Assembly (NCBI GenBank): GCA_041661505.1
Contig: JBAZUF010000001.1
Span: forward strand, 113,576-177,575
Direction of reading: 5' to 3'
From: Patescibacteria group bacterium
GTDB lineage: Bacteria; Patescibacteriota; Patescibacteriia; Patescibacteriales; JBAZCA01
Length of the DNA stretch: 64,000 bases
Shown here one piece after another: positions 29,132-63,999 of this stretch; position 1 is the stretch's first letter, and the number at the start of each line of letters is the position of its first letter. The translations under genes and the position numbers were made by a program. The notes beneath the pieces were generated by a model. That model saw nothing but the letters and a program-made list of their open reading frames with translations. It was not told the origin of the DNA and did no database searches.

Positions 29132-29159
29132 AAAAAACAAAAAACCGCGTTCAGCGGTT
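29132..29159 (-). terminator. rho-independent terminator ~62 nt upstream of the giant ORF start
   Basis: Minus sense: AACCGC-tgaac-GCGGTT followed by TTTTTTGTTTTTT (plus 29132-29144). Confidence 0.7.
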
Positions 29160-29802: not shown

Positions 29803-29806
29803 ACAT

Positions 29807-33352: not shown

Positions 33353-33427
33353 ATAACCCTCCAATTATATGAATTAAGCTATTCTATTATATTAGCACTT
33401 ATTTATTAGCTCAACAATACAAATACT

Positions 33428-41809: not shown

Positions 41810-41914
41810 AATAAATAAAATTTCTTTCGTTAATTCCTCTTTAAAACCAGTTCCTGGTTCCAGTTAGAATAATAGCCGATTGCAAAAATTTTTACAACCA
41901 ATTTATATTACGAG

Positions 41915-43489
41915 TTATATTATTAGCGATTTTCCCTTCATTTGCGCCGGTTTTCTTATATCCAATAATTGAAGTATGGTCGGCGCGACGTCTCCCAGGA
42001 TTCCATTGTCTTTCAAGCGGGTTTTTAGATGGCTGTCGCTCACTAAAATAAAAGGCGCTGGGCTCGTGCTGTGCTCGGTATCGATTTCTCCGGTTTTTAA
42101 ATTAATCATTGATTCTACGTTGCCGTGGTCCGCGGTTACCAAAACCGTTCCTTTAACTTTTAAATAGGCTTCAACAATCTTCCCGAGAAAGCCGTCAACC
42201 GCGCTTACGCATTCGATCCCGGCTTTTAAGTTTCCGGTGTGGCCGATCATGTCTGGCGCGGCAAAATTCAGAACCGTAAAATCGTATTTTCCAGCCTTGA
42301 GATTATTTAATACCAGCTCGGTAAGGGCCGCCGAGCTCATCGCCGGGGTAGCGTCATAGGATTTAACGTCCGGCGAAGGGATCATAATCTGGTCTTCCCC
42401 GTTCACTTTGCCCGAATATCCGCCGTTAAAAAAATAAGTGACGTGGGCGTATTTTTCCGTCTCGGCGATATAGGCCTGGCTTATATTTTTTAAAACCATC
42501 GGCAGGGTCTCTTTTACGTCAATGCTTGGGAAAGCGGAAAGAATATTTCCCAAATCCGGGCCAAAATCGGTCATGGCGATAAAAACCAAATTTTTTGGCG
42601 CCTTTTTCGGGATAAAGCATTTCGCGTTCATCTGGCAAAAATGCTTTTGGACAAAAACTTTTGAAAGCTGGCGCGCCCGGTCAGACCGCAGGTTGAAAAA
42701 AATAATGCTGTCATTGTCTCTAATCCGGGGAGTTGGCTTGCCCTTGTCCGTAATGACATAGGGTTCTATAAATTCATCCGAGTCGCCGCGGTTGTAGCTT
42801 TCGGTTATGGCTTGTTCGGCGCTTTCGGCTTTCCTTCCTTCCCCTAAAACCAAAGCGTTATAAGCTTTTTCGGTATTGGACCATTTTTTCTTGCGGTCCA
42901 TGGCATAATACCGGCCGATTATAGTCGCGATTACTTCGCCGTTTTTGAAGCATTTCCTTAAATCCTGGATTAGTTTCAGGCCGGCGTATTTAGGAGAGTC
43001 GCGGCCGTCGGTAAATAAGTGAAGGCAGACGTTTTTTACTTTTTGGAGCCGGCAGAAAGTTATCAGGGCTAAAAGATGGTCCGGATCGCTGTGGGCGCTC
43101 ATGCCGTTTGAAAGCATGCCCATAAGATGCAGATTGGAATTTTTTTCCTTGGCATTTTTTATGGCTTCGAGAAATGCCGGGTTTTTAAAGAAAGTCCCCT
43201 GATTAATGCTTTTGGAAATGGCTACCGCGTCCTGCTCGACAAGCCGCCCGGCGCCTAAATTTAAGTGCCCGGCTTCTGAATTTCCCGCTTGCTGGGGCGG
43301 CAGACCGACCGCTTTTCCCGATGCTTTTAGAAGCGTGTATGGATATTTTTTTTGGAGGCCGGTCATAACCGGGGTTTTGGCAAGGGTGATGGCATTGCCT
43401 CTTGAAGGCTTATTAATTCCCCAGCCGTCCAATATTACCAAGATCATGGGCGGATTATTTTTGTTTTTCGGTTTTTCCGGATTTATCAT
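41915..43489 (-). CDS. gpmI: 2,3-bisphosphoglycerate-independent phosphoglycerate mutase, copy 2 (diverged paralogue)
   Basis: ILDGWG, GNSEAGHLNLGAGR, ETEKYAHVTYFFNGG, VTADHGNVE. Start overlaps the eno stop (ATGA). Confidence 0.93.
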   Translation of the reverse strand: MINPEKPKNKNNPPMILVILDGWGINKPSRGNAITLAKTPVMTGLQKKYPYTLLKASGKAVGLPPQQAGNSEAGHLNLGAGRLVEQDAVAISKSINQGTFFKNPAFLEAIKNAKEKNSNLHLMGMLSNGMSAHSDPDHLLALITFCRLQKVKNVCLHLFTDGRDSPKYAGLKLIQDLRKCFKNGEVIATIIGRYYAMDRKKKWSNTEKAYNALVLGEGRKAESAEQAITESYNRGDSDEFIEPYVITDKGKPTPRIRDNDSIIFFNLRSDRARQLSKVFVQKHFCQMNAKCFIPKKAPKNLVFIAMTDFGPDLGNILSAFPSIDVKETLPMVLKNISQAYIAETEKYAHVTYFFNGGYSGKVNGEDQIMIPSPDVKSYDATPAMSSAALTELVLNNLKAGKYDFTVLNFAAPDMIGHTGNLKAGIECVSAVDGFLGKIVEAYLKVKGTVLVTADHGNVESMINLKTGEIDTEHSTSPAPFILVSDSHLKTRLKDNGILGDVAPTILQLLDIRKPAQMKGKSLII

Positions 43490-44739
43490 AGTTTGTTTTC
43501 GATTTCCATCAGCCGGTTATATTTGGCAACCCTTTCGCCGCGCGAGAGCGATCCGGCTTTGATATAATCAGCGCCGGCCGCGGCCGCCAGATCCGATATA
43601 AAATCATCGGTCGTTTCGCCCGAACGGTGAGATATGATAATTTTTAAGGCGTGGCTTTGCGCCAATTTTATGCAATCAATAGTTTCGGTTAAGGTGCCGG
43701 CCTGGTTGGGCTTAATTATTATCGCGTTGGCCGCTTTTTCTTTTAAGCCCTGTCTTAGGCGGTGGATGCTGGTGGCGAATAAATCATCGCCAACCACCAT
43801 CATCTCGCGCCCCAGCTCCCGGTTCAATTCCTTCCAGCCGGAAAAGTCGTCTTCCGATAATCCGTCTTCCAAATAGACGAGCGGATATTTTCTAAACCAT
43901 TCATAATAAAGCCCGGTCAAAGTCGCGCCGGTAAAATTTGACTGGTCCAGCTTAAAAATATATTTTCCGGTTTTTTTGTTGTAGATGGCCGAAGAGCCGA
44001 CGTCAATCCCAAGGCCAAAATCCTTTCCCGGGTTATAGCCGGCCCTTACTCCGGCGGCTAAAATCAATTCAATGGCCTGGATAGAAGAGTGCATGTCCGG
44101 CGCGTATCCGCCCTCGGCTCCGACGTCGGTATCAAACCCGGCTTCGCGCAAAACTTTGCCCAGCATATGGAAAATTTCCGCTCCCATCCGAACCATTTCC
44201 CGGAAGCTTTTTTTTGTTTGCCCGGGAATAACTAAAAATTCCTGAAAATCCAGGTTAGTGTCGGCGTGCCGGCCGCCGTTAAAAATATTAAAGCAGGGGA
44301 TCGGCAATTTGGGCCGGCTAAAATTAAAATGCTTTTGGATATACTGGAATAATGGAAGTCCTTTTGATTTTGCACCGGCGCGGCAGACGGCAAGCGATAC
44401 CGAAAGGATGGCGTTCGCGCCCAGCCGGCATTTATTTTCGGTCCCGTCCAAATCAATCATCCGTTTGTCGATTATTTCCTGGACGCCGGCGTCCATGCCG
44501 ATAAGTTCCGGGCCGATAATATCATTCACATTCTCTATCGCTTTTAAAACTCCCATTCCGCCGTAGCGCTTCCGGTCATTATCCCGCAATTCAAAAGCTT
44601 CGTATTTGCCGACTGAAGCGCCGGACGGGACGCTTGACTTAGCCGTGACTCCATTATCTAAAACGACCTCGGTTTCCACGGTCGGATTTCCCCGCGAATC
44701 TAAAATTTCCCGGGCAACAATTTTTTTAATTCTACTCAT
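43486..44739 (-). CDS. eno: enolase
   Basis: SRGNPTVE, IKPNQAGTLTET, SHRSGETTDDFISDLA. Confidence 0.96.
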   Translation of the reverse strand: MSRIKKIVAREILDSRGNPTVETEVVLDNGVTAKSSVPSGASVGKYEAFELRDNDRKRYGGMGVLKAIENVNDIIGPELIGMDAGVQEIIDKRMIDLDGTENKCRLGANAILSVSLAVCRAGAKSKGLPLFQYIQKHFNFSRPKLPIPCFNIFNGGRHADTNLDFQEFLVIPGQTKKSFREMVRMGAEIFHMLGKVLREAGFDTDVGAEGGYAPDMHSSIQAIELILAAGVRAGYNPGKDFGLGIDVGSSAIYNKKTGKYIFKLDQSNFTGATLTGLYYEWFRKYPLVYLEDGLSEDDFSGWKELNRELGREMMVVGDDLFATSIHRLRQGLKEKAANAIIIKPNQAGTLTETIDCIKLAQSHALKIIISHRSGETTDDFISDLAAAAGADYIKAGSLSRGERVAKYNRLMEIENKL

Positions 44740-44748
44740 ACTGATTTT

Positions 44749-45300
44749 TTATTGATAGCTTACGCAATAATTCATGCGCCGGTTAACGGGAAACGGATTA
44801 GGATTATCGGACTTAAAGTTGTTATAGTCTGAATAGTAGCAGGTGTTTTGAGTGGCAGTATCAATAGCCGAAGGGTTTTCAAGGGAAGTCCATAAGGTAA
44901 AACCTGTAACAGTGGCTCTAATCATATAAGCACTGCCGATACTGTTATAGCCAGAAACATTCCCCGACGGATCAATAATAACACTCCCGACATAACCTAA
45001 ATCCTTTAGTTCCTTGGCAACTGAATCATAGGGGCCGCTTACTCCGTCATAGTCATAACTAAACCAGCCTTGTCCGTTTCCGTTGCTACCGCTATTATCG
45101 ACCGTGTAATGGCCATTATTTTCATAATACATATGAAGCGCTTTGGCAATAAGCGTCAGATCGCTTTTTCTTCTCGCGTCCCGAGCCCTTTCCCTGGCGC
45201 TTTTTAAGGCAACTACGGCCAGAGTGGAAAGAAATCCGATTATGGATATAACAACCAATAATTCAATTAGGGTAAAGCCCGAGCTTTTTTTGCTTCGCAT
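44749..45300 (-). CDS. type IV pilin / pseudopilin (prepilin-type N-terminal cleavage/methylation domain)
   Basis: MRSKKSSG|FTLIELLVVISIIGFLSTLAVVAL class-III signal, followed by a ~140-aa globular domain. Confidence 0.85.
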   Translation of the reverse strand: MRSKKSSGFTLIELLVVISIIGFLSTLAVVALKSARERARDARRKSDLTLIAKALHMYYENNGHYTVDNSGSNGNGQGWFSYDYDGVSGPYDSVAKELKDLGYVGSVIIDPSGNVSGYNSIGSAYMIRATVTGFTLWTSLENPSAIDTATQNTCYYSDYNNFKSDNPNPFPVNRRMNYCVSYQ

Positions 45301-45345
45301 ATTGGTTAAATGGTTATTTTGATTAATTTTAGGTATTTAAATAAA

Positions 45346-46605
45346 TTATTTCCCGGTTAATCCCTCCAGGCCCGGCATTCTTTCCCCGCCCAGATAAGAA
45401 AGCATTGCCCCGCCGCCGGATGAGGCCCAGTCGATGTATTCTTTCATTTTGCTTCTTTCCAAGACCTCCATGGTTTCCCCGCCGCCTACGGCCGCGAAAG
45501 CTTTTCCCGATGCCCGGCTGGCAACCAGCCTGGCGATTGATAAGCTCCCTTGGGAAAAATGGGGGTTTTCAAAAAGCCCCATCGGCCCGTTCCACATTAG
45601 GGTTTTAGCCCCTTTGATAATTTTCGCGTAAGCCCTTATCGTTTCCGGGCCGATATCGAATATGTATTCATTTTTTTTCACTTTATCGATCTGGCAATGC
45701 CTAATTTCCCCTTTTTCCTTTCCGGCCGAAACAATGACGTCGGCCGGCAAAATTATCTTTTTCCCGGCCGGCTGGCGGATTAGTTTCCTGGCCAGCTCGA
45801 CGTCTTCGGCGCTAACCAGGGACTTTCCCACTTCCAGCCCTTGGGCGGCAAAAAAATTATTGGCCATGGCCCCGCCGATTAAAATTGATTCGTATTTAGG
45901 CAATAGGCTGTTTATCAAAGCGATTTTGGTAGAAATTTTCGCGCCGCCGATTATGGCCGTTGCCGGTTTTTCCGGCCGGACGATTTTTTCTAAATTTTCG
46001 ATTTCTTTTTCAACCAAAAGCCCGGCGTAAGCGGGAAGGAATTTTTTTATGGCGCTTACCGAAGCATGGTTCCGGTGATCTACGGCAAAAGAATCATTAA
46101 CATAAATACCGCGCGCCTCTGGTTCGCCGTCTGCGGAAGCTTGACCCGCCGGCCGGCTAGAAACTTTTTTTGTTTTGGGGCCGGCCGATTTTAGAACCAG
46201 CCGCGCGAGAGCCAGAGCGAATTCCGGATCATTCCCTTTCTCGCCTTTATGCATCCTTAAATTTTCAAGGAGGATTATTTCGCCGGGTTTAAGTTTTTCC
46301 GCTTCTTTTTCCGCTTTTTCGCCAATGCAATCCGGTACGAATTTTACTTTCCCGCCGAGCAGTTCACCGAGCCTTTTCGCGACTCCTTTAAGGCTCGCGT
46401 TTTTTTCGCCGCCGATTGGTTCCAGATGGCTTGCGGCTATTATCCGGCAGTTATGTTTGAGAAGATATTCTATGGTTGGCAGGCTGGCCGCAATCTTAAA
46501 ATCATCAAGCACTTTGCCTTTTTTCACCGGCACATTCAGGTCAGACCGGAGAAAAACCAGCCGGCCGCTTAAATTTTTAACATCTTGAATTGACTTGATT
46601 GTCAT
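45346..46605 (-). CDS. pgk: phosphoglycerate kinase (with a ~30-aa insertion in the N-domain)
   Basis: RSDLNVP, YVNDSFAVDHRNHAS, IIGGAKISTKI, WNGPMGLFE. Confidence 0.93.
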   Translation of the reverse strand: MTIKSIQDVKNLSGRLVFLRSDLNVPVKKGKVLDDFKIAASLPTIEYLLKHNCRIIAASHLEPIGGEKNASLKGVAKRLGELLGGKVKFVPDCIGEKAEKEAEKLKPGEIILLENLRMHKGEKGNDPEFALALARLVLKSAGPKTKKVSSRPAGQASADGEPEARGIYVNDSFAVDHRNHASVSAIKKFLPAYAGLLVEKEIENLEKIVRPEKPATAIIGGAKISTKIALINSLLPKYESILIGGAMANNFFAAQGLEVGKSLVSAEDVELARKLIRQPAGKKIILPADVIVSAGKEKGEIRHCQIDKVKKNEYIFDIGPETIRAYAKIIKGAKTLMWNGPMGLFENPHFSQGSLSIARLVASRASGKAFAAVGGGETMEVLERSKMKEYIDWASSGGGAMLSYLGGERMPGLEGLTGK

Positions 46606-54924: not shown

Positions 54925-55917
54925 CTAACCCTTTTTACCGGGCCTTATCGAAAACTCACAGCCGCAATAATTCTGGCGGTAAAGTTTTAATTCTTTTGAT
55001 AAAACGCACGATTTCCTAAAGCCGTCATTCTCTTTAAAATCCCGGGCGAGAAACTTTACTTTATGCTTTTTCTCCAGTTCGGCGCCGATGGACATGATGG
55101 CTTTCGCGTCTTTATGAGGACTTATTGTCAGCGTGGAAGTAAAATATTCAAAGCCTAGTTTTTTCGCCGCTCGGGCGGTTTCTTTCAGGCGGGCCTTATA
55201 GCAGACCAGGCACCTTTTTCCGCGTTCTTTTTCTTTTTCCAAACCGCGAACTTTTTTCAGCCAGGCTTTATGCCTATAGGGACTCGTGATTAATTTTAAT
55301 TTCAATTTTTTGGCGATTTTTTTCGCTTCTTCCAGCCTTTTATCATGTTCTTCTTTGGGTGAAATATTGGAATTGGAAAAATACAGGACAACCTGAAATT
55401 CTTTTCCCAGCTCCCGGCTCGTAAAAGCGCCGCAGCCGACACAGCAGATATGCAAAAGCAGTTTAGGCTTTTTCGGCGCGTTTATTTTCCAAAACAGCCA
55501 GACGAAAAAGACAATTCCGATTACGCCCGCGGCCGTATCGAGTAAAGATGAAGTCCGGCCCGGGATATAGATTTGCAGGTATTCGGTAAAAAATGAAAAG
55601 AAAACACTGAAAAAAAACGCCGGATAAACCGCCCACCGCCAGCCTGCCCGCCGAAGAGGCGGGCTTGCCTGCCGACTTGTCTGCCGAAGAGGCGGGTTTA
55701 TTTGCCGCTCGGGCGCCTTGGAAAAATCTTTTTTTATAAAAGCATTAGCAATAAAATAAAAAAGCAGTCCAAACAGCAAAAAATGCACCACCTTATCGCC
55801 GTAGGTGATTTTTTCCACCGCTTCCGGGTAATGCGGCATCGGAAGCGTAACCAACTGGAACACCAATAAAAACCAAGCGAGCGCAATTAAAGATTTTGTT
55901 AATTTATTAATTATCAT
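54925..55917 (-). CDS. queH: fusion protein: N-terminal VanZ-like membrane domain plus C-terminal epoxyqueuosine reductase QueH (DUF208)
   Basis: VanZ: DKVVHFLLFGLLFY and TEYLQIYIPGRTSSLLDTAAGVIG. QueH: LLLHICCVGCG, YFSNSNISP, RCLVCY, YCGCEFS. One continuous 330-codon frame. Confidence 0.8.
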   Translation of the reverse strand: MIINKLTKSLIALAWFLLVFQLVTLPMPHYPEAVEKITYGDKVVHFLLFGLLFYFIANAFIKKDFSKAPERQINPPLRQTSRQASPPLRRAGWRWAVYPAFFFSVFFSFFTEYLQIYIPGRTSSLLDTAAGVIGIVFFVWLFWKINAPKKPKLLLHICCVGCGAFTSRELGKEFQVVLYFSNSNISPKEEHDKRLEEAKKIAKKLKLKLITSPYRHKAWLKKVRGLEKEKERGKRCLVCYKARLKETARAAKKLGFEYFTSTLTISPHKDAKAIMSIGAELEKKHKVKFLARDFKENDGFRKSCVLSKELKLYRQNYCGCEFSIRPGKKG

Positions 55918-56124: not shown

Positions 56125-57657
56125 CTACCTCTCCTTCGGCGTAACAAAAAACCCCATGTATTTCCCGAGCGCCAAACGCGTTTGAGCTTCCAGGCCCGGA
56201 ATTGAGCCAAAAACAATAATGCTTACCGGCAAGATTATCCATTGAAGGAACATAGTTAAGCTTTTTCCGATGCCGTAATTTTTCGGCCGGCTCGGCAAAA
56301 GCATGGTGGAAACCACGGCTGAAAAAACCAATCCTATCATAGCGACAGTCATCAAGCTTCTGGTAACAAACGGCAAATTGGACGAAATCACCATAGCGTT
56401 AAAACTCTTGCCGCCGAAGAATACCGGCAGCCAGCCGATGACGCCGATGATTAGGGCGTTAGTCGCCCAGGAATGGAAGCCGTAAAGCTGGACAAAAATG
56501 CGGCTTAAATATTTGCCTTTGGGCGCCTTTTTATAATTTTTGATGAAATTGAAAAAAAGATAAGGGACATTCTCTACGCCCCAGCCCCAGCGCCTTTGCT
56601 GGCGGTAAAGCGATTTCATGGTTTGCCAGGGAGTTATGTCCATGGTTACATCCATCGAAAGCGGAAAGTAAAGCGGTTCAACGCGGTAATCGCCGTTGTA
56701 GTAGCAAAACCCGTGCCAAAAAATCCGCGAGTCTTCCGAAACCATGGTCGTTGACCAAAAGCCCATTTCTACCAAAGCCCGCCAGGTCATCGAATGAGAA
56801 GAATAGGTGGCTAATTTTTCCTGCCGCACCTGTTGCATCATCTGCCAAAAAGTATTAGAAGAGGCGGCGACGCGGGCAAAAAAAGGCGCCCGCCAGACAT
56901 TATTATGGTATAAGGGAATCGGCTGATAAGAAGCCCGGTAAGGATCCGGGACGGTTAGAAAAGTCTTGGCCAAACAATAAAAATAACCCGGATGGATTAT
57001 TGTATCAACGTCAAAAACACTCACTAATATTTTATCGTAATTAATTTTCTTCGGGTCAATTATTGCTTCCTTAACTTTTTTCGCCGCGAAAGCCTGATTG
57101 GCGCCTTTGCCTTTTAATTCGCCCGGAGTGTCCGGATGATAAGTAATTAAAAAATCGCCGAAATATTTTGAAAATTCCTCTTGGATGATGCCGGCTTTTA
57201 AAACTCCGGCTTCTCCCTCCCTTTCTTCAACCGCCAAAACTACTATCATCTTCTCGGCCGGATAGCCTTCGTCCTTTATCGCTTGTATAGTTGGCCGGAT
57301 AACTTCCGCCGACTCCATATAAGTCGGCAAAATTACCAGATGGTAAATCTCTTCCCAGCCCGGAAGTTTTCGGCAGGCTTCTTTCCAGTCTACTTTTAGA
57401 TTGGCTTTCATTTTTTTATAAGAGGCAAAAAGATGAATGCCGAGATAAACAACGAGCAATAACCAATAGACGTCAAAAGCGATAATGAAATAGGCGACCC
57501 AAATCGGCTTTATGAACGAAAAAACCACTAGAATCACCAAAGTTCCCCAAGAAAAAATCCCCGGCACCATTTCAAGCGCCCGGTATAACTTTTTGTCAGA
57601 TCCGGACAAGTCCGTTGCCTTGCCCACTTTTAGATAATCAATTTTTTTCACTGGCAT
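56125..57657 (-). CDS. membrane-embedded processive family 2 glycosyltransferase (cellulose/chitin/hyaluronan-synthase-like)
   Basis: N- and C-terminal TM bundles. VLAVEERE, VFDVDT (DxD) and QQRRWGWG (the Q(Q/R)xRW processivity motif). Confidence 0.82.
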   Translation of the reverse strand: MPVKKIDYLKVGKATDLSGSDKKLYRALEMVPGIFSWGTLVILVVFSFIKPIWVAYFIIAFDVYWLLLVVYLGIHLFASYKKMKANLKVDWKEACRKLPGWEEIYHLVILPTYMESAEVIRPTIQAIKDEGYPAEKMIVVLAVEEREGEAGVLKAGIIQEEFSKYFGDFLITYHPDTPGELKGKGANQAFAAKKVKEAIIDPKKINYDKILVSVFDVDTIIHPGYFYCLAKTFLTVPDPYRASYQPIPLYHNNVWRAPFFARVAASSNTFWQMMQQVRQEKLATYSSHSMTWRALVEMGFWSTTMVSEDSRIFWHGFCYYNGDYRVEPLYFPLSMDVTMDITPWQTMKSLYRQQRRWGWGVENVPYLFFNFIKNYKKAPKGKYLSRIFVQLYGFHSWATNALIIGVIGWLPVFFGGKSFNAMVISSNLPFVTRSLMTVAMIGLVFSAVVSTMLLPSRPKNYGIGKSLTMFLQWIILPVSIIVFGSIPGLEAQTRLALGKYMGFFVTPKER

Positions 57658-57752: not shown

Positions 57753-58499
57753 TTATTCACGAACGGCTACTTTTGCCTGGCGCAGGCGGTAAAGCTTTAA
57801 GGGATACTTTAAGAGGTATTTTAAATAAAAAAAACTGAAAGTCCGGACCAGGCTCCGTAAACGCTTAGGCCGGGTGCAATTAATATAATTTCCATTCCGG
57901 ATGGCGCAAAGGACCGCGGCCGAATTTTTTTCTTCGGCGTCGATCATTAAGTAATCAGTGTCAAAATATTTTAAATAATGCATATCGGCCGTCGCGATGA
58001 AGGGCAGGTCGTGGTCGCGGGCGATTTTTTCCACCTTCTTGTTGCGGTTCATTCCAACCGTATAAAACCAGCTGTGCTCAATGGCATCAAACATATTAAT
58101 GAATTTCCTAAGCCGCTTCCGGCCCATTGAGGCAAGAAAGTTAAAGTTTGGGTGGGGCGCGATAATAAAAATTTCCGGGTTCTCTTTTTTATACCGGGCC
58201 AGTTCGGTAAAGCTTTTTACGTTCTCGACTGACGGGCCGCAGTTTAAAACTAAGACGTGGTTTTGGCGGAAAAAAAATTTCATCGCCAGCTCAATCCCCG
58301 GAATTAAAACTATCCCTTTTGACCGGGCATACTGGCCGTGTTCTTCCCGGTAAACGAACTTGCGGTGGCCGGTTAAAGCCAGCACCTCAAATCCGAGCTC
58401 TGACGCGCGGTCTATCAGCTCGAAAATATCATAGCTTATAGCGTGACCGTCGGAAAAATCTTCTTTGGTATGGATATGGAGGCTCGATTTTAACTGCAT
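57753..58499 (-). CDS. PHP-domain metal-dependent phosphoesterase
   Basis: LHIHTKEDFSDGH N-terminal His cluster, LTGHRKF and later His/Asp residues in PHP order. Confidence 0.7.
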   Translation of the reverse strand: MQLKSSLHIHTKEDFSDGHAISYDIFELIDRASELGFEVLALTGHRKFVYREEHGQYARSKGIVLIPGIELAMKFFFRQNHVLVLNCGPSVENVKSFTELARYKKENPEIFIIAPHPNFNFLASMGRKRLRKFINMFDAIEHSWFYTVGMNRNKKVEKIARDHDLPFIATADMHYLKYFDTDYLMIDAEEKNSAAVLCAIRNGNYINCTRPKRLRSLVRTFSFFYLKYLLKYPLKLYRLRQAKVAVRE

Positions 58500-58507
58500 A
58501 GTTTGTT

Positions 58508-60502
58508 TTAGTCGAATTTAATCGTTTCACCGGCTTTTATTTTCTTTTCTTCTTTCGGATTATTTCCTTCCCTGGGTTTAGAGCTTGCGGCGGCTTCGGG
58601 TTCGGCTTTTTTCAGGTGACCAAACTTTATGGGCGCGATATTCTTTAAATCGCTTAAGGTAATTTCTTTCCAACTCTCGCCTTCGGTTCCGGCAAACCTC
58701 AAGCCGCTAACCGGCGGTTTTTCTTTTGGCGCAGGGGCTTCAGTCCCGCTAACCTCTTCCAGCCGGGCAAGTTCCAGAAGTTTTTTCTTCCTTCGCTCCT
58801 CGACTTCTTCATTTTTCTCCTTCTTTATCACTGTAAGGCATTCTTTGCAAAATACCGGCCGGATCCCGTCAGGAGGAAATGAAATTTTAGTATCTTTGCC
58901 GCAACGGGAACAAGCCGCGTTGTATTTGTAAATCTCTTTATTATCCTCCCTAAATCCCGCCGAAGACTCTTGGCGGCTGTTTTGCTCATCCTTCTTAGGC
59001 AATAAAGCAATTTCTTTCGCCCGGATGCCGTTTGATTCCCTTGCTTCTCTTATCGGGGTCTTGGCCTTTTTTTCATCGCGCCCGTTCCTTGGGCTATTTG
59101 AGCCGGCCGAATTTTTTTGTCCCCGGGCGGAAGAAAACCCTTTCGGCTTTGAAGAGGATCTTGGCGCCGGCCCTTCTTCTTTTTTTTCGTCAAACGCGTG
59201 CCAGCGGAAAATCTTCTCTTCAACTTCGTTTTTTTTCTTGGAATACCGCTCCCGGGAAACCTTGATTACCTTCCCGGTGCTTTGGGTGCGCAGTATTTCC
59301 TTTAAGGGAGGCAGTCCGCGGGCCGAAAACGGGTCTGAAGAAACCCCGTCAATCATCAACTTAAGATACATTTCATATTTTGGCAAATTAACCAGATCTT
59401 CTTCAGTAAAAGTCGGAGTAAATTCTTTAACCAGCTCTTCAGCGTCCGTGGCCCCGACCCGGAATACGGCTAATGTGCCGACGTTGCCGAAAACCGCCGC
59501 CTTAACCATATCTCCCAGCTGTTCGATATATTGGTGGCCCATGATCAGATTTAAATGATATTTCCGGGCTTCGGACAAAATGTTGGCAAAGCTGTCAGTG
59601 GCAAAATTTTGGAACTCATCGACATAAAGGTAAAAATCCTTCCGATCGGCCTCGGGAACGTCAACCCGGCTCATGGCCGCGAGCTGGATTTTGGTAATCA
59701 TCATGCTCCCTAAAAGCGCCGAATTATCTTCGCCAATCCTGCCTTTTGACAAATTAAGGATTAAAATTTTTCCTTCATCCATAACTTTGCGGACATCAAT
59801 CGAGGACTTAACCTGGCCGATAATATTTCTTATTAGCGAGCTCGACAAAAATTGACCGACTTTGTTTTGGATCGGCGATACGGCCTCTGAAGCGAACTTG
59901 TCGGCGTAACCGGCAAATTCCTTGACCCAAAAAGTTTTTACCACCGGATCCTGGATTTTGTCGATGACTTTTTTCCTAAAATCTTTATCCGAAAGCATCC
60001 GGGTTACGGCGAGTAGCGTCGACCCGGGATAATCCAAAACCGCGAGTATGGTATTCCTTAAAATGTATTCCAATCTCGGCCCCCAGGAATCGGCCCAAAG
60101 TTTTTGAAAAACGCCGATCAACCCCGAGGCGACCAAGTGCCGAAGGTGCGGCTCTACCCGCTCCAAAACGTTAAACGCGATCGGGAATTCCATGTCCGCC
60201 GGATTAAAATAAATGACGTCATTAATCCGTTCAGCCGGCACAAAGTCAATAACCTTTTCCGCCAAATCGCCGTGCGGATCAACAACCGCCACTCCCCGCC
60301 CGGCCAGGATGTCGCCGATAATCATATTTTCCAAAAGCGTCGATTTTCCCATGCCGGTTTTTCCGATGACGTACATGTGCCGCCGCCGGTCGTCCAGCTT
60401 AATCCCAAAAGTCTGGTTTTTGTTCCGGAAAGTGGTAATGCCAAAAAGAGTGATATCGCTATCCTTGGCGGATTTTTCATTGTTAAATTTATCCATGTCC
60501 AT
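58508..60502 (-). CDS. VirD4/TraD/TraG-like (T4SS coupling-protein-type) P-loop ATPase lacking TM segments, with a long K/E/R-rich tail that contains a CxxC...CxxC zinc ribbon
   Basis: Walker A IGKTGMGKST. AAA_10/TraG-D_C-type Walker B and sensor FYLYVDEFQNFAT...NLIMGHQY. Tail zinc ribbon CSRCGKDTKISFPPDGIRPVFCKEC (nt 58835-58912). Confidence 0.75.
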   Translation of the reverse strand: MDMDKFNNEKSAKDSDITLFGITTFRNKNQTFGIKLDDRRRHMYVIGKTGMGKSTLLENMIIGDILAGRGVAVVDPHGDLAEKVIDFVPAERINDVIYFNPADMEFPIAFNVLERVEPHLRHLVASGLIGVFQKLWADSWGPRLEYILRNTILAVLDYPGSTLLAVTRMLSDKDFRKKVIDKIQDPVVKTFWVKEFAGYADKFASEAVSPIQNKVGQFLSSSLIRNIIGQVKSSIDVRKVMDEGKILILNLSKGRIGEDNSALLGSMMITKIQLAAMSRVDVPEADRKDFYLYVDEFQNFATDSFANILSEARKYHLNLIMGHQYIEQLGDMVKAAVFGNVGTLAVFRVGATDAEELVKEFTPTFTEEDLVNLPKYEMYLKLMIDGVSSDPFSARGLPPLKEILRTQSTGKVIKVSRERYSKKKNEVEEKIFRWHAFDEKKEEGPAPRSSSKPKGFSSARGQKNSAGSNSPRNGRDEKKAKTPIREARESNGIRAKEIALLPKKDEQNSRQESSAGFREDNKEIYKYNAACSRCGKDTKISFPPDGIRPVFCKECLTVIKKEKNEEVEERRKKKLLELARLEEVSGTEAPAPKEKPPVSGLRFAGTEGESWKEITLSDLKNIAPIKFGHLKKAEPEAAASSKPREGNNPKEEKKIKAGETIKFD

Positions 60503-60617
60503 ATCAAGTGCCGTATTTATAGAACTATTATTGAAGCCTTTTTTACTCGCGTATTAATTTTACGCTTTACTTTACAATATTATTCATTATAATCACTTTT
60601 AATTAAAGAAAACAAAG

Positions 60618-62108
60618 TCAGGCAAAAGGCAAATTTTCCGGCGCTTCGCCCTTATGTTTCGCTTTATCCTCCTTTTCATTTCTCCTTTCTTCCTCATCAG
60701 CCCAAGGCTTTTCCTCCTGGAAAGAAATTCCCGGCTCGGGCCGGATATCTTCGAAGAATTCGATCTTTTCCTGCACTTCGCCTTCAGAGTGGATTGGCAG
60801 GCCCATCGGCGCCTCGGCTTTGCGGCCCGGCGCTTTTTGCAAAAGCGGAGCGTTGACCGCCGATTCCAGCGGGAAATGCCAAAGAGTGGCCAGCTCCTCG
60901 ACATTCATGATTATCGGCAATTTTCCGATCGCTCCGTCGCGGCCTTTATAGCCTTTCATAATTTTATATTTTTTAAGATTTCTCCTTTCATCGACAAAAA
61001 AATAATGAGCCCGGGTCATAGTAAGCTCCATGTCCGGCCTTAAGCTATTTAAATCATTATCGACAAATTGCTTCATATATCCGACAAAGCCGCCGAAAGA
61101 TTTGCCTTTATGGAAAAGTTCCTTTTTGGCCAGATAAATAAACCTGATTTTAGTATTATAAGCGACTTTGGAAACCTTTTCCTGGATGGCTTCGACTCTT
61201 TTCTTTTCCGCCGGATTAAGCTCAATCATGGTCTTCACTTTTTTCTCTTCCTTTTTCTTTTCGTCTTCTATGTCCCCCCAGAGCTTATATATCGCTTCGC
61301 TTAAATCATGCAGAGCCTGAAGAAAGAGGGCAATTAGGGTTTCGCCAATGCCTTTTTTTCCCACTTCCTCCCCGAAAATTTTCTTGACTTCATCGTCGGC
61401 TATACCCATCCAGTCAAACCCGATGGGCTGGAGCAATATCTGGTACCACATCTGCTCTCCGGGGCCTAAAGATGACATGAGCGCCATTAGCGTGCCGTTG
61501 GGGTCTTTGAAAGACGATTTTTCGTCAATGCCGGGCTTGGCAACTTCAAATTTTTTGTAAGTCTTAATCGGATAAGCCGCCGGCTTGGTATAAGTGAATT
61601 CAGTTCCAACCAGATCCCAGGCTTCATCCGGAAATCTATCCGGCGTATCGCGGGTATAGTCGTCAATCTCGGTGATTTCCGCGTCAGGATATTGGGAATA
61701 GATCGCCGATTCAACCAGATCCCGGTACCGGAGCGGACTGCGGATGACGTACTGGATATATCCGTCGATAGACACGATTTCCATCGAAAAACGAAGCTGC
61801 CATTCACCCATCCACCAGCGCTCAAAAACATTTATGGTCATGTGGGCGCCTGCCAGATAATTAAAAATATTTTCTACCGCCAAAGGCGACTGCTCATTGC
61901 CGCGCGGAACATCAATCGCCAAAAAGACGTATTTCTGGGCTCTGGCGTATTGCAACTGGATATAATACAGCCAGACAGTCCGCGCCCCGAAAAGGTAAAG
62001 GATGAAAAGCGGCAGCCAGCCGGCGCCAAAAAAAATCTTCAGCAATATCTCATGCACCGGCAAACTGAAAAATTGTACGACCGTACTTAAATCAATTACA
62101 AAATCCAT
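60618..62108 (-). CDS. membrane protein (2 N-terminal TM plus ~400-aa soluble domain), conserved-looking partner of the ATPase; hypothetical
   Basis: TMs ILLKIFFGAGWLPLFILYLFG region, then FLAIDVPRGNEQSPLAVENIFNYLAG... and an acidic/basic tail. Directly upstream of, and co-oriented with, the ATPase. Confidence 0.6.
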   Translation of the reverse strand: MDFVIDLSTVVQFFSLPVHEILLKIFFGAGWLPLFILYLFGARTVWLYYIQLQYARAQKYVFLAIDVPRGNEQSPLAVENIFNYLAGAHMTINVFERWWMGEWQLRFSMEIVSIDGYIQYVIRSPLRYRDLVESAIYSQYPDAEITEIDDYTRDTPDRFPDEAWDLVGTEFTYTKPAAYPIKTYKKFEVAKPGIDEKSSFKDPNGTLMALMSSLGPGEQMWYQILLQPIGFDWMGIADDEVKKIFGEEVGKKGIGETLIALFLQALHDLSEAIYKLWGDIEDEKKKEEKKVKTMIELNPAEKKRVEAIQEKVSKVAYNTKIRFIYLAKKELFHKGKSFGGFVGYMKQFVDNDLNSLRPDMELTMTRAHYFFVDERRNLKKYKIMKGYKGRDGAIGKLPIIMNVEELATLWHFPLESAVNAPLLQKAPGRKAEAPMGLPIHSEGEVQEKIEFFEDIRPEPGISFQEEKPWADEEERRNEKEDKAKHKGEAPENLPFA

Positions 62109-62199: not shown

Positions 62200-63390
62200 T
62201 TAATTTTCTTTGGTTATATTAGCCGGTTCTTTGGTCCGGTAGCTGTTCCCGTCTCTCATAAACCGCTCTTTGTTGGCTAGAGCCAGGGCGATAGTGGTCT
62301 TTTTTACCATTCTTTCTTTTAATACCTGGTCAATGATTTCTTCCCGAGTAAGGGCGGCGCCGGCTTTATCGATGATTTCCGATATAATTTCAGCCACCGT
62401 CCCCTGCTTTAACCCCCATTCGGCTAAGCCATACATCCCCCGGCCGACTAAAATAAATTTGTCGTCTAAAATCAGCTCGTTGTGGGCCGAAGCGATATTG
62501 GTAGTTTTTTTGTCAAAACCAACCCCGTCTATTTTTTTAGCGATTTCGGCAAAATGCATCGGCCGGGTTTCGTTTTTTAACACCAGATAAATTTTTTCGT
62601 TTAAATTCCTCGGCTTGATTTCCGGCCAATGGGAAAGCCCCCAATGCCCGAAAACATTGCGGTCAATCGCTTTGGCCGCTTTGAATATCGAGTATAAAAT
62701 ATTTTTCTCTTTGCCTGGTTCGGTTTCAATTTTATCCTGGTAGTAAGGCGAGAGGTCGATTTCAACTTTAACATTATCAAGGCTTTCTTCCAGTCCGGCC
62801 GCGGCGGCGGCTTCGCGGGCCAAGGAGAAAAGTTCTTTAGTCAAAAGGATGCTTCCCTTTTCCCCGATCTTTTTTTTCAATTCGCCGATTAGCTTTACCC
62901 AGTGGCTTAAATCCTCTCCGGTAAGCTTGATGTGGGTTGAAAATGAGTCTGATTTATTGACCTCTTCAAAACCGTCAAGGATTTTTAAAATAATAAAATT
63001 ATAAAAATTTCTGAAAGCGCTTTCCTCGCCGGCCGGCTTTCCTTTTAATCCGTAATAGGCCAGGACTTCAAACAAATGGTCTTTTTCCATCATCCCGCCG
63101 TGGGCGGCAATCAATTCTTTAATTAAATTTTCCAGGGCGATCAGATTAACTTTGTCCCTTGATTCCCGGATCTTCCGCAGTCCGGCTGATTCGATTTGCC
63201 TTACTCTTTCGCGGGTAAGGTTGTGGATTTTCCCGATGCCTTCCAAAATTTCTTTTTCCCCTCCCTTTAGGCCGTGGCGCCGGATGATGATGTCTTTTTC
63301 CCGTTCTTTTAGACGCGAAAGCAGCTCCTCGGTAATTTCCGAAGGATTCAAGTTTGATAAATCCTCAATTTTGATTTTTACTGCGTCCAT
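62200..63390 (-). CDS. sigma-70 region-4-like HTH fused to HARE-HTH (RNA polymerase delta-subunit-type) domains
   Basis: N-terminus: LEGIGKIHNLTRERVRQIESAGLRKIR (sigma region 4.2 signature). C-half: MHFAEIAKKI...LILDDKFILVGRGMYGLAEWG (HARE-HTH signature) plus a second weaker copy. Confidence 0.7.
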   Translation of the reverse strand: MDAVKIKIEDLSNLNPSEITEELLSRLKEREKDIIIRRHGLKGGEKEILEGIGKIHNLTRERVRQIESAGLRKIRESRDKVNLIALENLIKELIAAHGGMMEKDHLFEVLAYYGLKGKPAGEESAFRNFYNFIILKILDGFEEVNKSDSFSTHIKLTGEDLSHWVKLIGELKKKIGEKGSILLTKELFSLAREAAAAAGLEESLDNVKVEIDLSPYYQDKIETEPGKEKNILYSIFKAAKAIDRNVFGHWGLSHWPEIKPRNLNEKIYLVLKNETRPMHFAEIAKKIDGVGFDKKTTNIASAHNELILDDKFILVGRGMYGLAEWGLKQGTVAEIISEIIDKAGAALTREEIIDQVLKERMVKKTTIALALANKERFMRDGNSYRTKEPANITKEN

Positions 63391-63504: not shown

Positions 63505-63999
63505 TCATCCAAAGTCAATAGAAATTTCGGCTTTATTCCTCTTTATTATAAAAAAAGCTAATATTAAATAATATATTGCAAAATAAGGCCAATAATTGAG
63601 TTGTATTTGCGGATGGGAAAACGGAACAAGAGAAAGAATTTTTGTTGCTCCAATTAAATATTTTATCATGAGCCAAACCGGGAAAAAGGCAATCTTTGCC
63701 ATTAAAGGAATAAATAAGCCGAATATTATGCCGAGGACGGTAAAAATCATTATCGGCAAAATCGTCCACAAGGCGATTAAGTTCGCAACCGGAGCGATTA
63801 AAGATATAAAATGGAAATTATAAATCAAAATCGGCAGAGTAAGGACTTGGGCGGCCAAAGTTACAAGAATTGATTCGGTAAAAATCTTTGGGATAAAATT
63901 TAGAAGCTTGACTCGCCCGTACCACGTTTTTAAAGGGGGATAGAAGTAGACCAGGCTCATGGTTGCCATAAACGACAGCTGAAAGCCGACGTCATCCCT
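63505..63999 (-). CDS. comEC: competence protein ComEC/Rec2, C-terminal part of the membrane channel domain; 5' end beyond window
   Basis: Frame is open to the window edge (..RDDVGFQLSFMATMSLVYF). LTLPILIYNFHFISLIAPVANLIA is typical of the Competence domain. The protein ends without a metallo-beta-lactamase domain. Confidence 0.8.
   Translation of the reverse strand, partial: RDDVGFQLSFMATMSLVYFYPPLKTWYGRVKLLNFIPKIFTESILVTLAAQVLTLPILIYNFHFISLIAPVANLIALWTILPIMIFTVLGIIFGLFIPLMAKIAFFPVWLMIKYLIGATKILSLVPFSHPQIQLNYWPYFAIYYLILAFFIIKRNKAEISIDFG

Follow-up and report, generated by a model that had tools for sequence, protein, structure and literature searches.

A TM-less T4CP-class ATPase and its DUF8128 membrane partner as probable halves of one split coupling protein in Patescibacteria

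Coupling proteins of the VirD4/TrwB type (T4CPs) carry an N-terminal transmembrane (TM) domain in the same chain as the ATPase and end in a variable C-terminal extension that recognises substrates or adaptors. Reviews of T4CPs also recognise TM-less members with a separate membrane partner, such as TraJ/TraI of pIP501; in this pair and in the TraG/TraJ pairs of R27-like plasmids, all from conjugative plasmids, a soluble coupling ATPase is combined with a second protein that recruits it to the membrane. One polypeptide holds a DUF8128 (Pfam PF26449) module and a T4CP-type module in Saccharibacteria, on plasmids of Firmicutes and actinomycetes, and in Bacillus phages. The monoderm plasmid proteins (885 aa in B. 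licheniformis NZ_CP035190, 913 aa in B. subtilis NRS6116_2, 812 aa on an Embleya plasmid) have PF26449 followed by a DUF87/TrwB-type ATPase, and adjoin genes for a replication-relaxation family protein, PrgI, TcpD/E, a VirB4-like protein and NlpC/P60. Lytic Bacillus phages (SPO1 gp27.4, phage G gp156, CP-51, JL) encode fused DUF8128-like and T4CP-like modules in the proteins of phrog_5156.

The ATPase family studied here was catalogued earlier as orphan T4CP homologues, found in 2,918 of 3,035 Patescibacteria genomes (96%), whereas VirB4 or a T4SS was found in 80%; only 148 of 5,713 such homologues were near virB4. In Tn-seq of S. epibionticum, the fused orthologue SEML1_0293 (921 aa) and the com genes were non-essential, while the T4SS cluster and the sigma4/HARE-HTH gene were essential. 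An earlier note on the DNA analysed here had called the module uncharacterised, which is partly wrong given the catalogue, the Tn-seq result and the recognised category of TM-less T4CPs.

We analysed a 64,000-nt stretch of a Patescibacteria genome (the window) that contains ORFs of 664 and 496 codons, in which all motifs quoted in the earlier note were present as described. Both are real genes rather than chance ORFs, since homologues of each number in the thousands, with E-values as low as 0. The features of the ATPase gene are as follows (A2 is the ATPase alignment).
58508–60502, minus strand: ATPase gene, 664-aa T4CP-class ATPase, TM-less, with zinc-ribbon tail
59198–60445, minus strand: conserved ATPase core, aa 20–435, near-invariant in A2
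60338–60364, minus strand: Walker A, GKTGMGKST, aa 47–55
59777–60151, minus strand: all-helical insert, aa 118–242, where T4CPs have their all-alpha domain
59603–59635, minus strand: Walker B, FYLYVDEFQNF, aa 290–300
58511–59197, minus strand: C-terminal tail, aa 436–664, low-complexity linker with conserved islands
58832–58927, minus strand: CxxC-x17-CxxC treble-clef zinc finger, aa 527–557
58751–58846, minus strand: K/E/R-rich helix after the zinc finger, aa 553–584
58607–58666, minus strand: tail motif E-I-(S/T)-L...P-(V/I)-x-F, aa 613–632, conserved in A2
58511–58546, minus strand: extreme C-terminal acidic motif KKIKAGETIKFD, A2 consensus L-K-E-G-E-E-V-x-F

The ATPase has a VirD4/TrwB-class nucleotide-binding domain with intact Walker A and B motifs and no TM segment; a Kyte-Doolittle hydropathy scan for hydrophobic segments found none. 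It matched Pfam TrwB_AAD_bind (2e-9, spanning aa 37–351) and DUF87 (8.8e-7), its TraG-D_C match was sub-threshold, and TrwB was its sole sequence match in the PDB. Scores against curated NCBIfam T4CP equivalogs were far under every cut-off (e.g. 47.6 vs 366 bits). The AlphaFold model was only moderate (mean pLDDT 59.8), and its top Foldseek matches were DotL (3.9e-6), TrwB (~5e-6) and Cagbeta (1.1e-5), all with probability 1.0, with VirB4 far weaker (1.1e-2). Like TrwB of R388, DotL and Cagbeta, the protein has a P-loop domain, Walker A and B, and an all-helical insert, modelled at moderate pLDDT as eight helices between core strands; MGHQY is present at aa 321. Unlike VirD4/TrwB-type T4CPs, its own chain has no N-terminal TM domain, and it is chromosomal, phylum-wide and unlinked to relaxase or VirB genes. 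Its core is far more conserved than that of usual T4CPs, with 75–91% identity across related species loci, compared to 40–67% for neighbouring genes.

The variable extension typical of T4CPs is also present here, as a tail with a zinc finger. The ribbon CSRCGKDTKISFPPDGIRPVFCKEC (aa 531–555) matched PF23477 zf_Tbcl_2 (40.8 bits, cut-off 27) and TIGR04272 CxxC-x17-CxxC (40.5 bits, cut-off 36), its cysteines C531, C534, C552 and C555 were invariant in A2, and the finger was modelled with pLDDT of 76–89. The tail had pLDDT below 50 over aa 434–521, and its sequence outside the islands was variable in A2. [quoted passage not shown] The TM-less VirD4/TraD-like ATPase with a zinc-ribbon tail that the earlier note had described is supported, although the tail extends ~229 aa beyond the conserved core and not ~260 aa.

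The partner gene lies directly upstream (A1 is the partner alignment, 25 sequences).
60503–60617, minus strand: AT-rich intergenic spacer of 115 nt between the partner and ATPase genes
60618–62108, minus strand: partner gene, 496-aa DUF8128 (PF26449) protein
61980–62051, minus strand: single N-terminal TM helix, aa 20–43, EILLKIFFGAGWLPLFILYLFGAR, from the Kyte-Doolittle scan
60855–61937, minus strand: cytoplasmic alpha/beta domain, aa 58–418 (~360 aa)
60870–60899, minus strand: invariant EELAxxWHFP block within this domain, aa 404–413
60657–60854, minus strand: disordered variable linker, aa 419–484, pLDDT <50, gappy in A1
60798–60839, minus strand: internal PPxLP-like copy KAPGRKAEAPMGLP, aa 424–437, opening the linker
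60621–60653, minus strand: C-terminal peptide KGEAPENLPFA, consensus K-G-x-P-P-x-N-L-P, the upstream flank of the fission point

The large domain of the partner, taken at first to be of unknown family, is DUF8128: the PF26449 assignment is precomputed on exactly this sequence, and 2,449 family representatives (50% identity) were found with E ≤ 1e-3. Two TM helices had been proposed; hydropathy and the AlphaFold model show one clear helix (~aa 20–43), lying inside a continuous helix of residues 18–57. The alpha/beta domain was modelled with pLDDT mostly of 75–90, and P490, N492, L493 and P494 of the terminal peptide were invariant in A1. Among PDB structures, TrwK chains were the best Foldseek matches (probability 0.94–0.99, ~445 aligned columns), a weak match that gives the partner some resemblance in fold to the VirB4 N-terminal domain (TrwK of R388). 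No minus-strand terminator was called in the 115-nt spacer.

Five independent lines from comparison with the fused proteins connected the two genes. The phrog_5156 profile matched the partner at positions 76–289 (6.7e-12) and the ATPase at positions 386–807. With hhalign, the DUF8128 profile matched the N-termini of a Bacillus plasmid T4CP (93%, E 2.4e-7) and phage G gp156 (81%, E 1.2e-5), and among viral proteins those of phrog_5156 matched the partner model best in structure (Foldseek, gp156 1.5e-15, phage JL 2.8e-12). Precomputed PF26449+PF01935 and PF26449+PF10412 architectures occur on proteins of 765–1,124 aa, including one from Saccharibacteria. In BLASTP, the fused Saccharibacteria protein P0477 (937 aa) matched the partner over residues 13–368 (4e-34) and the ATPase core over residues 376–792 (51% identity, 2e-149), and this colinearity marks it as orthologous to the split pair. 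P0477 has one N-terminal TM helix, while the scanned Bacillus plasmid fused protein had none at the hydropathy threshold used.

At the fused junction, ...EPPxNLP is followed by 10–20 aa and then by LxxxGxTNFRG..FGIKxxDRRRH..GKTGxGKS. This is colinear with the extreme C-terminus of the partner and the N-terminal block of the ATPase (ITLFGITTFRN...FGIKLDDRRRH), which forms the downstream flank of the fission point. The partner corresponds to the N-terminal half of an undivided DUF8128-T4CP; it is the detached half of the same ancestral protein, a point in which it may differ from the second proteins of other TM-less T4CPs. The fused forms differ from the split pair in being single chains without the ribbon; identity to the window proteins is only ~25–31% in the ATPase core for the plasmid proteins and ~24–31% for the phage-encoded ones, and the fused Patescibacteria orthologues also lack the GT2 gene downstream. 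The split, ribbon-bearing ATPases form one clade within the fused radiation and have the shortest branches in the tree. Fission is the derived state, and the split clade evolves very slowly.

We read the two genes as the halves of one T4CP machine after gene fission, with a probability of roughly 0.72 that they form a split, membrane-tethered T4CP-type motor; cargo and specific channel lie outside this figure. Because the fused orthologues join TM helix, DUF8128 and T4CP with a colinear junction, the proposal that the partner supplies the membrane anchor in trans is strongly backed.

The surroundings of the module in the window are as follows.
56125–57657, minus strand: membrane GT2 glycosyltransferase, 510 aa (Pfam Glyco_trans_2_3), conserved downstream neighbour
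57753–58499, minus strand: PHP-domain phosphoesterase (Pfam) in a variable slot, 8-nt gap after the ATPase
62200–63390, minus strand: upstream neighbour, Sigma70_r4 and HARE-HTH protein, 396 aa (Pfam)
63505–63969 and beyond: comEC, 3' end, two genes upstream of the module

The DUF8128 and ATPase genes were adjacent in 36 of the 76 related species loci (determinable GTDB loci), with gaps of 14–612 nt, and in most lineages they are neighbours. Nearly all non-adjacent loci (39/40) fall in one clade, whose DUF8128 proteins have an intact PPxNLP motif and no ATPase gene within 10 kb. When further ATPase homologues were looked up, DUF8128 was directly upstream in 4/7, in varied contexts; the other three (P0224, P0510, P0507), without DUF8128 upstream, form one ATPase subclade. 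Co-location is thus not obligatory, since each gene occurs without the other nearby in some genomes. The sigma4/HARE-HTH gene was immediately upstream of DUF8128 in 64/69 loci, and in Saccharibacteria L096 and S. epibionticum it precedes the fused form, a synteny common to fused and split versions. Between it and the partner gene in the window lie a promoter-like site and a terminator-like hairpin, and it is probably transcribed on its own.

A T4SS-independent nucleic-acid translocase is an unlikely alternative; it would be either a ComFA stand-in acting with ComEC, ComFC and DprA, or a DNA/RNA export or transfer pump acting with the sigma4/HARE-HTH protein. The com genes given by Wang et al. 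are ComEC, DprA and ComFC, and 'ComFA' is absent from their supplementary tables. This reading would fit the position of comEC two genes upstream in the window, the zinc finger in the ATPase tail, the conserved DNA-binding neighbour, the nuclease-like genes (PHP, RNase_T) often found directly after the ATPase, the narrower spread of VirB4 than of T4CP homologues, and the dispensability of the T4CP orthologue and com genes beside an essential T4SS. Pfam confirmed the sigma4/HARE-HTH gene and comEC as neighbours in the window, but the "competence/pilus neighbourhood" of the earlier note is not conserved across loci: comEC was near the module in 2/80 loci and a PilT-like gene likewise in 2/80, and the few pilus-related genes of the window (one PilT-like ATPase ~8 kb away, one prepilin-like gene ~13 kb away) lie among glycolysis genes. 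We know of no T4CP-family protein that drives ComEC-dependent uptake. In S. epibionticum, the sigma4/HARE-HTH gene is essential and the T4CP orthologue is not, therefore the two have no single indispensable function in common, and the hairpin between the sigma4/HARE-HTH and partner genes also speaks against a joint device.

Downstream synteny raises an envelope-biogenesis machine, in which the ATPase and the membrane GT2 synthase (in class B loci, DUF8128 together with GT4 and a DUF4012-like protein) would export or organise a surface polymer. In almost every class A locus that reaches far enough, GT2 follows the ATPase at a distance of 1–3 kb, and it likewise lies downstream of ATPases without adjacent DUF8128; GT4 and the DUF4012-like gene follow DUF8128 in 39/40 class B loci, and MurB is often upstream. 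The window GT2 has weak PgaC/CelA similarity. However, the slot between ATPase and GT2 is variable (DUF1361, an RNase_T exonuclease or nothing in other loci), GT2 does not adjoin the fused orthologue in Saccharibacteria, and a conserved gene order may reflect history and not function in CPR genomes, which are small and syntenic. To our knowledge, no T4CP-family ATPase acts in polysaccharide export, and we regard this reading as improbable.

Still less probable is an anti-phage defence module of the HerA/FtsK-like type (MADS mad8 or HerA-associated systems). The ATPase had weak PADLOC matches (mad8 2.6e-16, HerA models 1e-9 to 1e-4) and HerA structures appear in its Foldseek list, but they rank below T4CPs, which are the best matches by both HMM and fold; the partner had no PADLOC match, no nuclease, Sir2 or methylase effector gene was consistently linked, and a near-universal single-locus core gene with conserved housekeeping synteny is unlike patchy defence islands. 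A functionless remnant of a decaying integrated conjugative element, with an orphan T4CP split by mutation, is suggested by the plasmid T4CPs beside relaxase and T4SS genes that are the closest non-CPR relatives, and by the "broken" gene, but the pattern of conservation effectively rules it out: hundreds of species keep the two ORFs intact, core identity exceeds that of the neighbours, branches in the tree are shortest in the split clade, the synteny with housekeeping genes persists, and no integrase, relaxase or repeat boundary was found nearby in DNA of unremarkable composition.

For the split motor, we propose that the partner, oriented N-out/C-in, would anchor the ATPase, as a hexameric ring, at the cytoplasmic membrane, and that its terminal PPxNLP peptide may grip the ATPase non-covalently where the chain was once continuous. 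The flexible tail (zinc finger, charged helix and two short conserved peptides) could recruit a substrate or adaptor, which would resemble the binding of relaxosome accessory proteins by T4CP C-terminal tails, and ATP hydrolysis would drive or gate hand-over of a macromolecule to a membrane channel. The cargo would most likely be DNA or a nucleoprotein, and possibly a protein. The channel may be the MPF-FATA-like T4SS encoded elsewhere in most Patescibacteria, at a little under even odds, with a T4SS-independent role a tentative second candidate. Against canonical T4SS coupling stand the few homologues near virB4, the 96% versus 80% occurrence, and the dispensability of SEML1_0293 beside an essential T4SS cluster. 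The window itself, with no VirB4, VirB6, PrgI or relaxase gene among the 37 ORFs scanned with Pfam, also disfavours such a role. The claim of no other T4SS genes holds locally only, because a T4SS is encoded elsewhere in 80% of Patescibacteria genomes.

The contrast drawn by the earlier note with a conjugation remnant is misleading, as the fused members of the family lie beside relaxase and VirB4-like genes. The ancestry of the module lies in the coupling-protein architecture that monoderm conjugation systems use, and its split, zinc-finger-tailed form is kept across a large group of Patescibacteria, away from secretion-system genes.

Both open reading frames were recovered on the minus strand at the positions proposed in the earlier note, and the genes relevant here are as follows:

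58508-60502, minus strand: ATPase gene (664 aa, ORF call); Walker A motif GKTGMGKST at aa 47-55 and Walker B motif FYLYVDEFQNF at aa 290-300
60618-62108, minus strand: partner gene (496 aa, ORF call)
62200-63390, minus strand: sigma4/HARE-HTH gene (Sigma70_r4 and HARE-HTH domains), upstream of the partner
57753-58499, minus strand: PHP phosphoesterase gene in the slot between ATPase and GT2, 8-nt gap
56125-57657, minus strand: GT2 gene (Glyco_trans_2_3 membrane glycosyltransferase, 510 aa), downstream of the ATPase

Since the ATPase and the partner each had thousands of homologues, with E-values down to 0, both are real genes. The plus-strand ORFs across the region are short antisense shadows. 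The motifs quoted earlier were also found, including MGHQY at aa 321 and the zinc ribbon CSRCGKDTKISFPPDGIRPVFCKEC at aa 531-555.

The ATPase matched the Pfam family TrwB_AAD_bind (37.3 bits vs a cut-off of 20.5, E = 2e-9, aa 37-351) and also DUF87, with TraG-D_C below threshold. NCBIfam gave weak, partial TraD- and VirD4-type matches far under their cut-offs, and the scores of curated coupling-protein (T4CP) equivalogs were not reached (SXT_TraD, 47.6 vs 366 bits; conju_CD1115, 34.6 vs 250 bits). The only sequence match in the PDB was TrwB. The AlphaFold model, built from 24 homologues, was of moderate confidence (mean pLDDT 59.8, core 50-88) and predicted eight helices inserted between core strands at aa 118-242 (pLDDT 56-85); this insert would occupy the position of the T4CP all-alpha domain, and the TrwB_AAD_bind match covers the same region. 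Foldseek ranked DotL (3.9e-6), TrwB (~5e-6) and Cagbeta (1.1e-5) ahead of HerA (5e-5) and VirB4 (1.1e-2). A hydropathy scan detected no hydrophobic segment, so an N-terminal transmembrane (TM) domain on the same chain is absent. Taken together, the HMM, PDB and Foldseek matches and the helical insert identify the protein as a T4CP-class ATPase without a TM domain, as had been suggested from the sequence. TM-less T4CPs that pair with a membrane protein are a recognised category, exemplified by TraJ/TraI of pIP501 (PMC7431656), and the ATPase with its separate TM partner fits this subclass of "T4CP without TMD plus partner".

The partner had been described as a two-TM protein of unknown family, and neither description held. 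The Pfam annotation PF26449 (DUF8128) is precomputed on the exact protein and on nearly all of the 120 homologues listed; hydropathy revealed one clear TM segment (aa 20-43), and AlphaFold modelled one continuous helix (aa 18-57) with no two-helix hairpin. DUF8128 is a large family, with 2,449 representatives at 50% identity at E ≤ 1e-3 and 910 at E ≤ 1e-30, and the best 150 are, without exception, stand-alone and 285-691 aa long. A search of the available paper library for "DUF8128" found no paper. In the AlphaFold model (pLDDT 70, pTM 0.65), the N-terminal TM helix is followed by an alpha/beta region to ~aa 418, a disordered linker and a terminal peptide, K-G-x-P-P-x-N-L-P, which is strictly conserved. 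Because the positive residues come after the TM helix, we infer an N-out/C-in topology that would place the large domain in the cytoplasm. The motif K-x-x-(E/A)-P-P-x-(N/M/G)-L-P occurs twice in the partner, right after the WHFP block (60798-60839, minus strand) and at the extreme C-terminus (60621-60653, minus strand), the two copies being parted by the variable disordered linker; the fused proteins described below carry one copy. The best PDB folds for the model were R388 TrwK/VirB4 chains (probability 0.94-0.99 over ~445 columns, with TM-scores of just ~0.3). No sequence link between partner and VirB4 emerged from the DUF8128 profile against PDB sequences, from all 25 DUF8128 alignment members against Pfam at E ≤ 1, or from hhalign against an Embleya VirB4-like protein and phage G gp155. 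A "VirB4-N-domain-like" partner is thus a lead only, drawn from the predicted fold.

Five independent lines show that partner and ATPase are one protein elsewhere. Within phrog_5156 (824 positions), the partner matched positions 76-289 (6.7e-12) and the ATPase positions 386-807 (1.5e-68). Searches with the ATPase core found long proteins (~810-915 aa) encoded by Bacillus phages (G gp156, SPO1 gp27.4) and by plasmids of Bacillus and Embleya, as well as a 1,193-aa match on a Haladaptatus plasmid, and the ATPase begins 300-380 residues into the long phage and plasmid proteins. On their N-termini, the DUF8128 profile aligned with 93% probability to the Bacillus plasmid protein and 81% to gp156 (hhalign); the alignment with SPO1 gp27.4 was insignificant. 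The best viral folds for the partner model were gp156 (1.5e-15) and a phage JL protein (2.8e-12, Foldseek). The phage link is visible only by profiles or structure, and tblastn of the partner against phage genomes returned no match. Precomputed PF26449 annotations are present on fused Bacillus proteins, and PF26449 together with TrwB_AAD_bind is annotated on proteins of 765-1,124 aa, one of them named from Candidatus Saccharibacteria. In a fused Saccharibacteria orthologue (P0477, 937 aa), BLASTP assigned residues 13-368 to the partner (4e-34) and 376-792 to the ATPase core (51% identity, 2e-149); this protein has a single N-terminal TM helix and lacks the ribbon.

The junction in the fused proteins reads ...EELAxxxHxP...SKxxEPPxNLP-(10-20 aa)-LxxxGxTNFRG..FGIKxxDRRRHxYxIGKTGxGKS, and the window partner ends ...KGEAPENLPFA with the ATPase starting ...DITLFGITTFRNKNQTFGIKLDDRRRHMYVIGKTGMGKS. 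Because the fused junction is colinear with the partner end and the ATPase start, the split point lies a few residues past PPxNLP. In a rough neighbour-joining tree of ATPase cores, all split, ribbon-bearing ATPases formed one tight, short-branched clade inside the fused radiation, from which it follows that fission and ribbon gain are derived. On Bacillus and actinomycete plasmids, the fused protein adjoins genes for a replication-relaxation family protein, PrgI, TcpD/E, a VirB4-like protein and NlpC/P60; given this setting beside relaxation and T4SS genes, it evidently serves there as coupling protein in monoderm conjugation. The split pair represents a gene-fission form of the monoderm DUF8128-T4CP, chromosomal and phylum-scale, with a zinc-finger tail gained. 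The fused TM-DUF8128-T4CP orthologues and their colinear junction bear out the earlier suggestion that the partner supplies the membrane anchor in trans. The accompanying statement that the pair is no conjugation remnant is not supported in the sense of an origin outside conjugation, since the fused relatives sit beside relaxation and VirB4-like genes on plasmids.

Two further observations concern mobile elements. Lytic Bacillus phages (G gp155 and gp156, SPO1 gp27.4, CP-51, JL) encode fused DUF8128-like/T4CP-like proteins of phrog_5156 (L086:1223-5365, L087:2747-5467), and phage G has two such proteins in tandem. The alphaproteobacterial Sulfitobacter plasmid NZ_CP081110 (L088:5998-7185) encodes an ATPase core alone (395 aa), which shares 42% identity with the window ATPase, lacks N-domain and tail, and is located between recombinase and transposase genes.

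In an alignment of 24 ATPase sequences, the core (aa 20-435) is almost invariant, with Walker A GKTGMGKST and the hhhhDE motif unchanged throughout, and is followed by a variable low-complexity linker and a tail with four conserved islands. These are a CxxC-x17-CxxC finger whose four Cys are invariant in all 24 sequences, a helix rich in K/E/R, an E-I-S-L...P-V-x-F motif, and L-K-E-G-E-E-V-x-F at the extreme C-terminus. The finger scored above the cut-offs of PF23477 (zf_Tbcl_2, 40.8 vs 27 bits) and TIGR04272 (40.5 vs 36 bits), which together with the invariant Cys substantiates the zinc-ribbon tail noticed earlier. Zinc binding by fingers of this type has been demonstrated only in archaeal (Methanosarcina) small proteins (PMC12704099). 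One Falkowbacteria ATPase (P0224, L098:963-3116) has two tandem CxxC-x17-CxxC ribbons in its tail.

We scanned GTDB species representatives with the DUF8128 alignment, which yielded at least 585 loci, and analysed the best 80. The ATPase followed DUF8128 on the same strand, with gaps of 14-612 nt, in 36 of the 76 determinable loci among these 80, and no ATPase lay inside the locus in the other 40. In a rough neighbour-joining tree of partners, 39 of these 40 fell into a single clade and the adjacent state was paraphyletic and diverse, indicating that the genes were separated in one lineage. Seven further ATPase homologues were looked up: four had DUF8128 directly upstream, in varied contexts, and the other three, from one subclade, had none within the ~1-7 kb upstream flank. 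The adjacency on which the earlier note made its claim depend stands for the 36 loci and the four homologues, and does not extend to the other 40 loci or to the three ATPases; in these three the ATPase persists with DUF8128 not adjacent. The gene order common to the three is nrdRDG, small TM ORF, ATPase, (RNase_T), GT2, which looks like the window arrangement minus the sigma4/HARE-HTH and DUF8128 segment. The small ORF was considered as a partner remnant, and this was rejected: it encodes a small TM protein that belongs to the nrd cluster and is not related to the partner. It belongs to a conserved 90-110-aa protein with a coiled N-terminus and one TM helix encoded after nrdG (L001:3852-4184, L101:6665-6991, L102:3716-3988, L098:632-937), which directly precedes the ATPase in the ATPase-only contexts (gaps 10-25 nt) and has no DUF8128 homology.

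Across species with the adjacent pair, identity to the window proteins was 75-91% for the ATPase core, 42-68% for the partner, 37-61% for the sigma4/HARE-HTH protein and 59-80% for GT2. For a coupling protein, such constraint on the ATPase core is unusually strong. In the clade without a nearby ATPase (L014-L084; e.g. L014:5295-12253), DUF8128 is followed by genes for GT4, an ~850-aa protein whose YLLVFQNNAEMRASGG motif resembles DUF4012 by eye, a 660-aa TM/repeat protein and a tgt-like gene. Many GTDB records with the Patescibacteria-type module (L007, L014-L016, L018, L020 and others) are titled "uncultured Gammaproteobacteria bacterium" and come from binchicken co-assembly MAGs; these titles are probably mislabels.

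DUF8128 had the sigma4/HARE-HTH gene as its immediate upstream neighbour in 64 of the 69 testable loci. The gene likewise precedes the fused protein in a Saccharibacteria MAG (L096:6922-7953, 47-nt gap) and in S. epibionticum; a further copy is located at L100:4079-5299. Between this gene and the partner, the window has a terminator-like hairpin and a promoter-like site. As the earlier note had stated, conjugation genes are missing nearby: no T4SS gene or relaxase was found among the 37 window ORFs scanned, nor in the related loci inspected. The 37 ORFs encode mostly housekeeping or surface proteins, and four had no Pfam match. Other features of the window are:

54925-55917, minus strand: one 330-aa ORF joining a VanZ-like membrane domain and epoxyqueuosine reductase QueH
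3777-5974, minus strand: PBP2 as two overlapping ORFs, PBP_dimer (4943-5974) and Transpeptidase (3777-5072); a frameshift, an error in sequencing or an artefact of start-codon choice could explain the split
40220-46605, minus strand: two tandem iPGM paralogues
44749-45300: prepilin-like gene (N_methyl motif) wedged between enolase and PGK genes
22243-33364, minus strand: genes for two presumed surface proteins, one Ig-like/beta-helix (2,275 aa) and one LamG/lipase-like (1,185 aa)
28-32 kb: low GC (0.39 vs ~0.46 elsewhere), holding the LamG/lipase-like gene and the 5' end of the Ig-like/beta-helix gene

The C-terminal tail of the F-plasmid coupling protein TraD binds TraM. By analogy, cargo or an adaptor may be recruited by the flexible ATPase tail, which combines a zinc finger and a charged helix with an acidic C-terminal peptide whose last residue is hydrophobic; the sigma4/HARE-HTH protein is a candidate adaptor. 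The ATPase would form a hexameric ring that the partner tethers to the cytoplasmic side of the membrane, and the DUF8128 domain and the PPxNLP peptide at the partner's end would hold the ATPase where the chain was formerly continuous. ATP hydrolysis would then hand over a macromolecule to a channel, for which the most economical candidate is the MPF-FATA-like T4SS encoded elsewhere in most Patescibacteria, a cluster without its own T4CP.

A previous survey counted 5,713 VirD4-type T4CP homologues across 2,918 of 3,035 Patescibacteria genomes, with virB4 close by for only 148 of the homologues, and VirB4 in fewer genomes (2,417). It raised exaptation of the T4CPs as a possibility (Quinonero-Coronel et al. 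2025, PMC12102498); partner, fission and ribbon do not feature in it. In S. epibionticum, the essential T4SS cluster has no recognisable coupling or relaxase proteins, the fused orthologue SEML1_0293 (921 aa, TrwB domain 402-719) is non-essential in Tn-seq, and SEML1_0294 immediately upstream (sigma4/HARE-HTH, annotated "RpoS") is essential (Wang et al. 2023, PMC10633639). Also essential are another long T4CP-like paralogue, SEML1_0142 (1,019 aa, "TraM recognition domain-containing"), and SEML1_0141, the 139-aa gene that precedes it (PMC10633639, Table S1); SEML1_0142 may be the T4CP serving the essential T4SS. Given the mismatch in essentiality between SEML1_0293 and the T4SS, the wider occurrence of T4CPs than of VirB4 and the housekeeping-grade conservation, a T4SS-independent role is nearly as likely as T4SS coupling. 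One specific form of it is a nucleic-acid translocase core to much of Patescibacteria and acting with the sigma4/HARE-HTH protein, either as the missing cytoplasmic DNA-uptake motor, the phylum having no reported ComFA, or as a DNA/RNA pump between epibiont and host. We regard this form as tentative; if true, the near-invariant ATPase core would reflect a housekeeping-grade function unrelated to conjugation.

A DNA-uptake or transfer motor is a doubtful reading. The pair had been placed in a competence/pilus neighbourhood, but comEC lay near the module in just 2 of 80 related loci and a PilT-like gene likewise in 2 of 80, so linkage to the Com machinery was rejected as a conserved feature, and the setting is particular to the window genome and its closest relatives. 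ComEC, ComF and DprA are non-essential in S. epibionticum, and "ComFA" is absent from the supplementary tables (PMC10633639).

GT2 was the most persistent downstream neighbour of the ATPase, present in nearly all adjacent-pair loci reaching far enough and in the ATPase-only contexts L098, L101 and L102. It has weak, far sub-threshold similarity to PgaC/IcaA and CelA, and an envelope-polymer machine acting with GT2 is improbable. The slot between ATPase and GT2 varies, holding PHP (window), a DUF1361 membrane protein (14 loci) or an RNase_T-type exonuclease (L101:8930-9502, L102:5984-6556), or being empty; two of the occupants are nuclease-like. A HerA-type defence ATPase, prompted by PADLOC mad8/HerA matches, is very improbable and was discarded on its distribution and the lack of partner matches: the PADLOC matches are weak and confined to the ATPase, the partner and the PHP gene having none, the sigma4/HARE-HTH gene resembles only MzaA, weakly and in the sigma region, and the module shows core-gene synteny, not an island-like distribution. 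Least probable of all is a decaying conjugative remnant, which the conservation pattern contradicts.

Patescibacteria are host-dependent and account for much of bacterial diversity. Nearly all retain one or two orphan T4CP homologues, reported from more genomes than VirB4, and part of this family is a two-gene, membrane-tethered machine from a monoderm conjugative T4CP, whose lineage-specific zinc-finger tail likely defines its cargo or adaptor. DUF8128 thereby gains a concrete role as anchor and N-domain of a coupling protein. The analysis also provides handles, namely the fission point with its mutable short putative docking peptides and two conserved genomic partners, the sigma4/HARE-HTH protein and the membrane GT2. 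S. epibionticum is genetically tractable and can do without the fused orthologue, so the role of the orphan T4CP, whether in uptake, in DNA or protein delivery to the host, or in another process, is directly testable.
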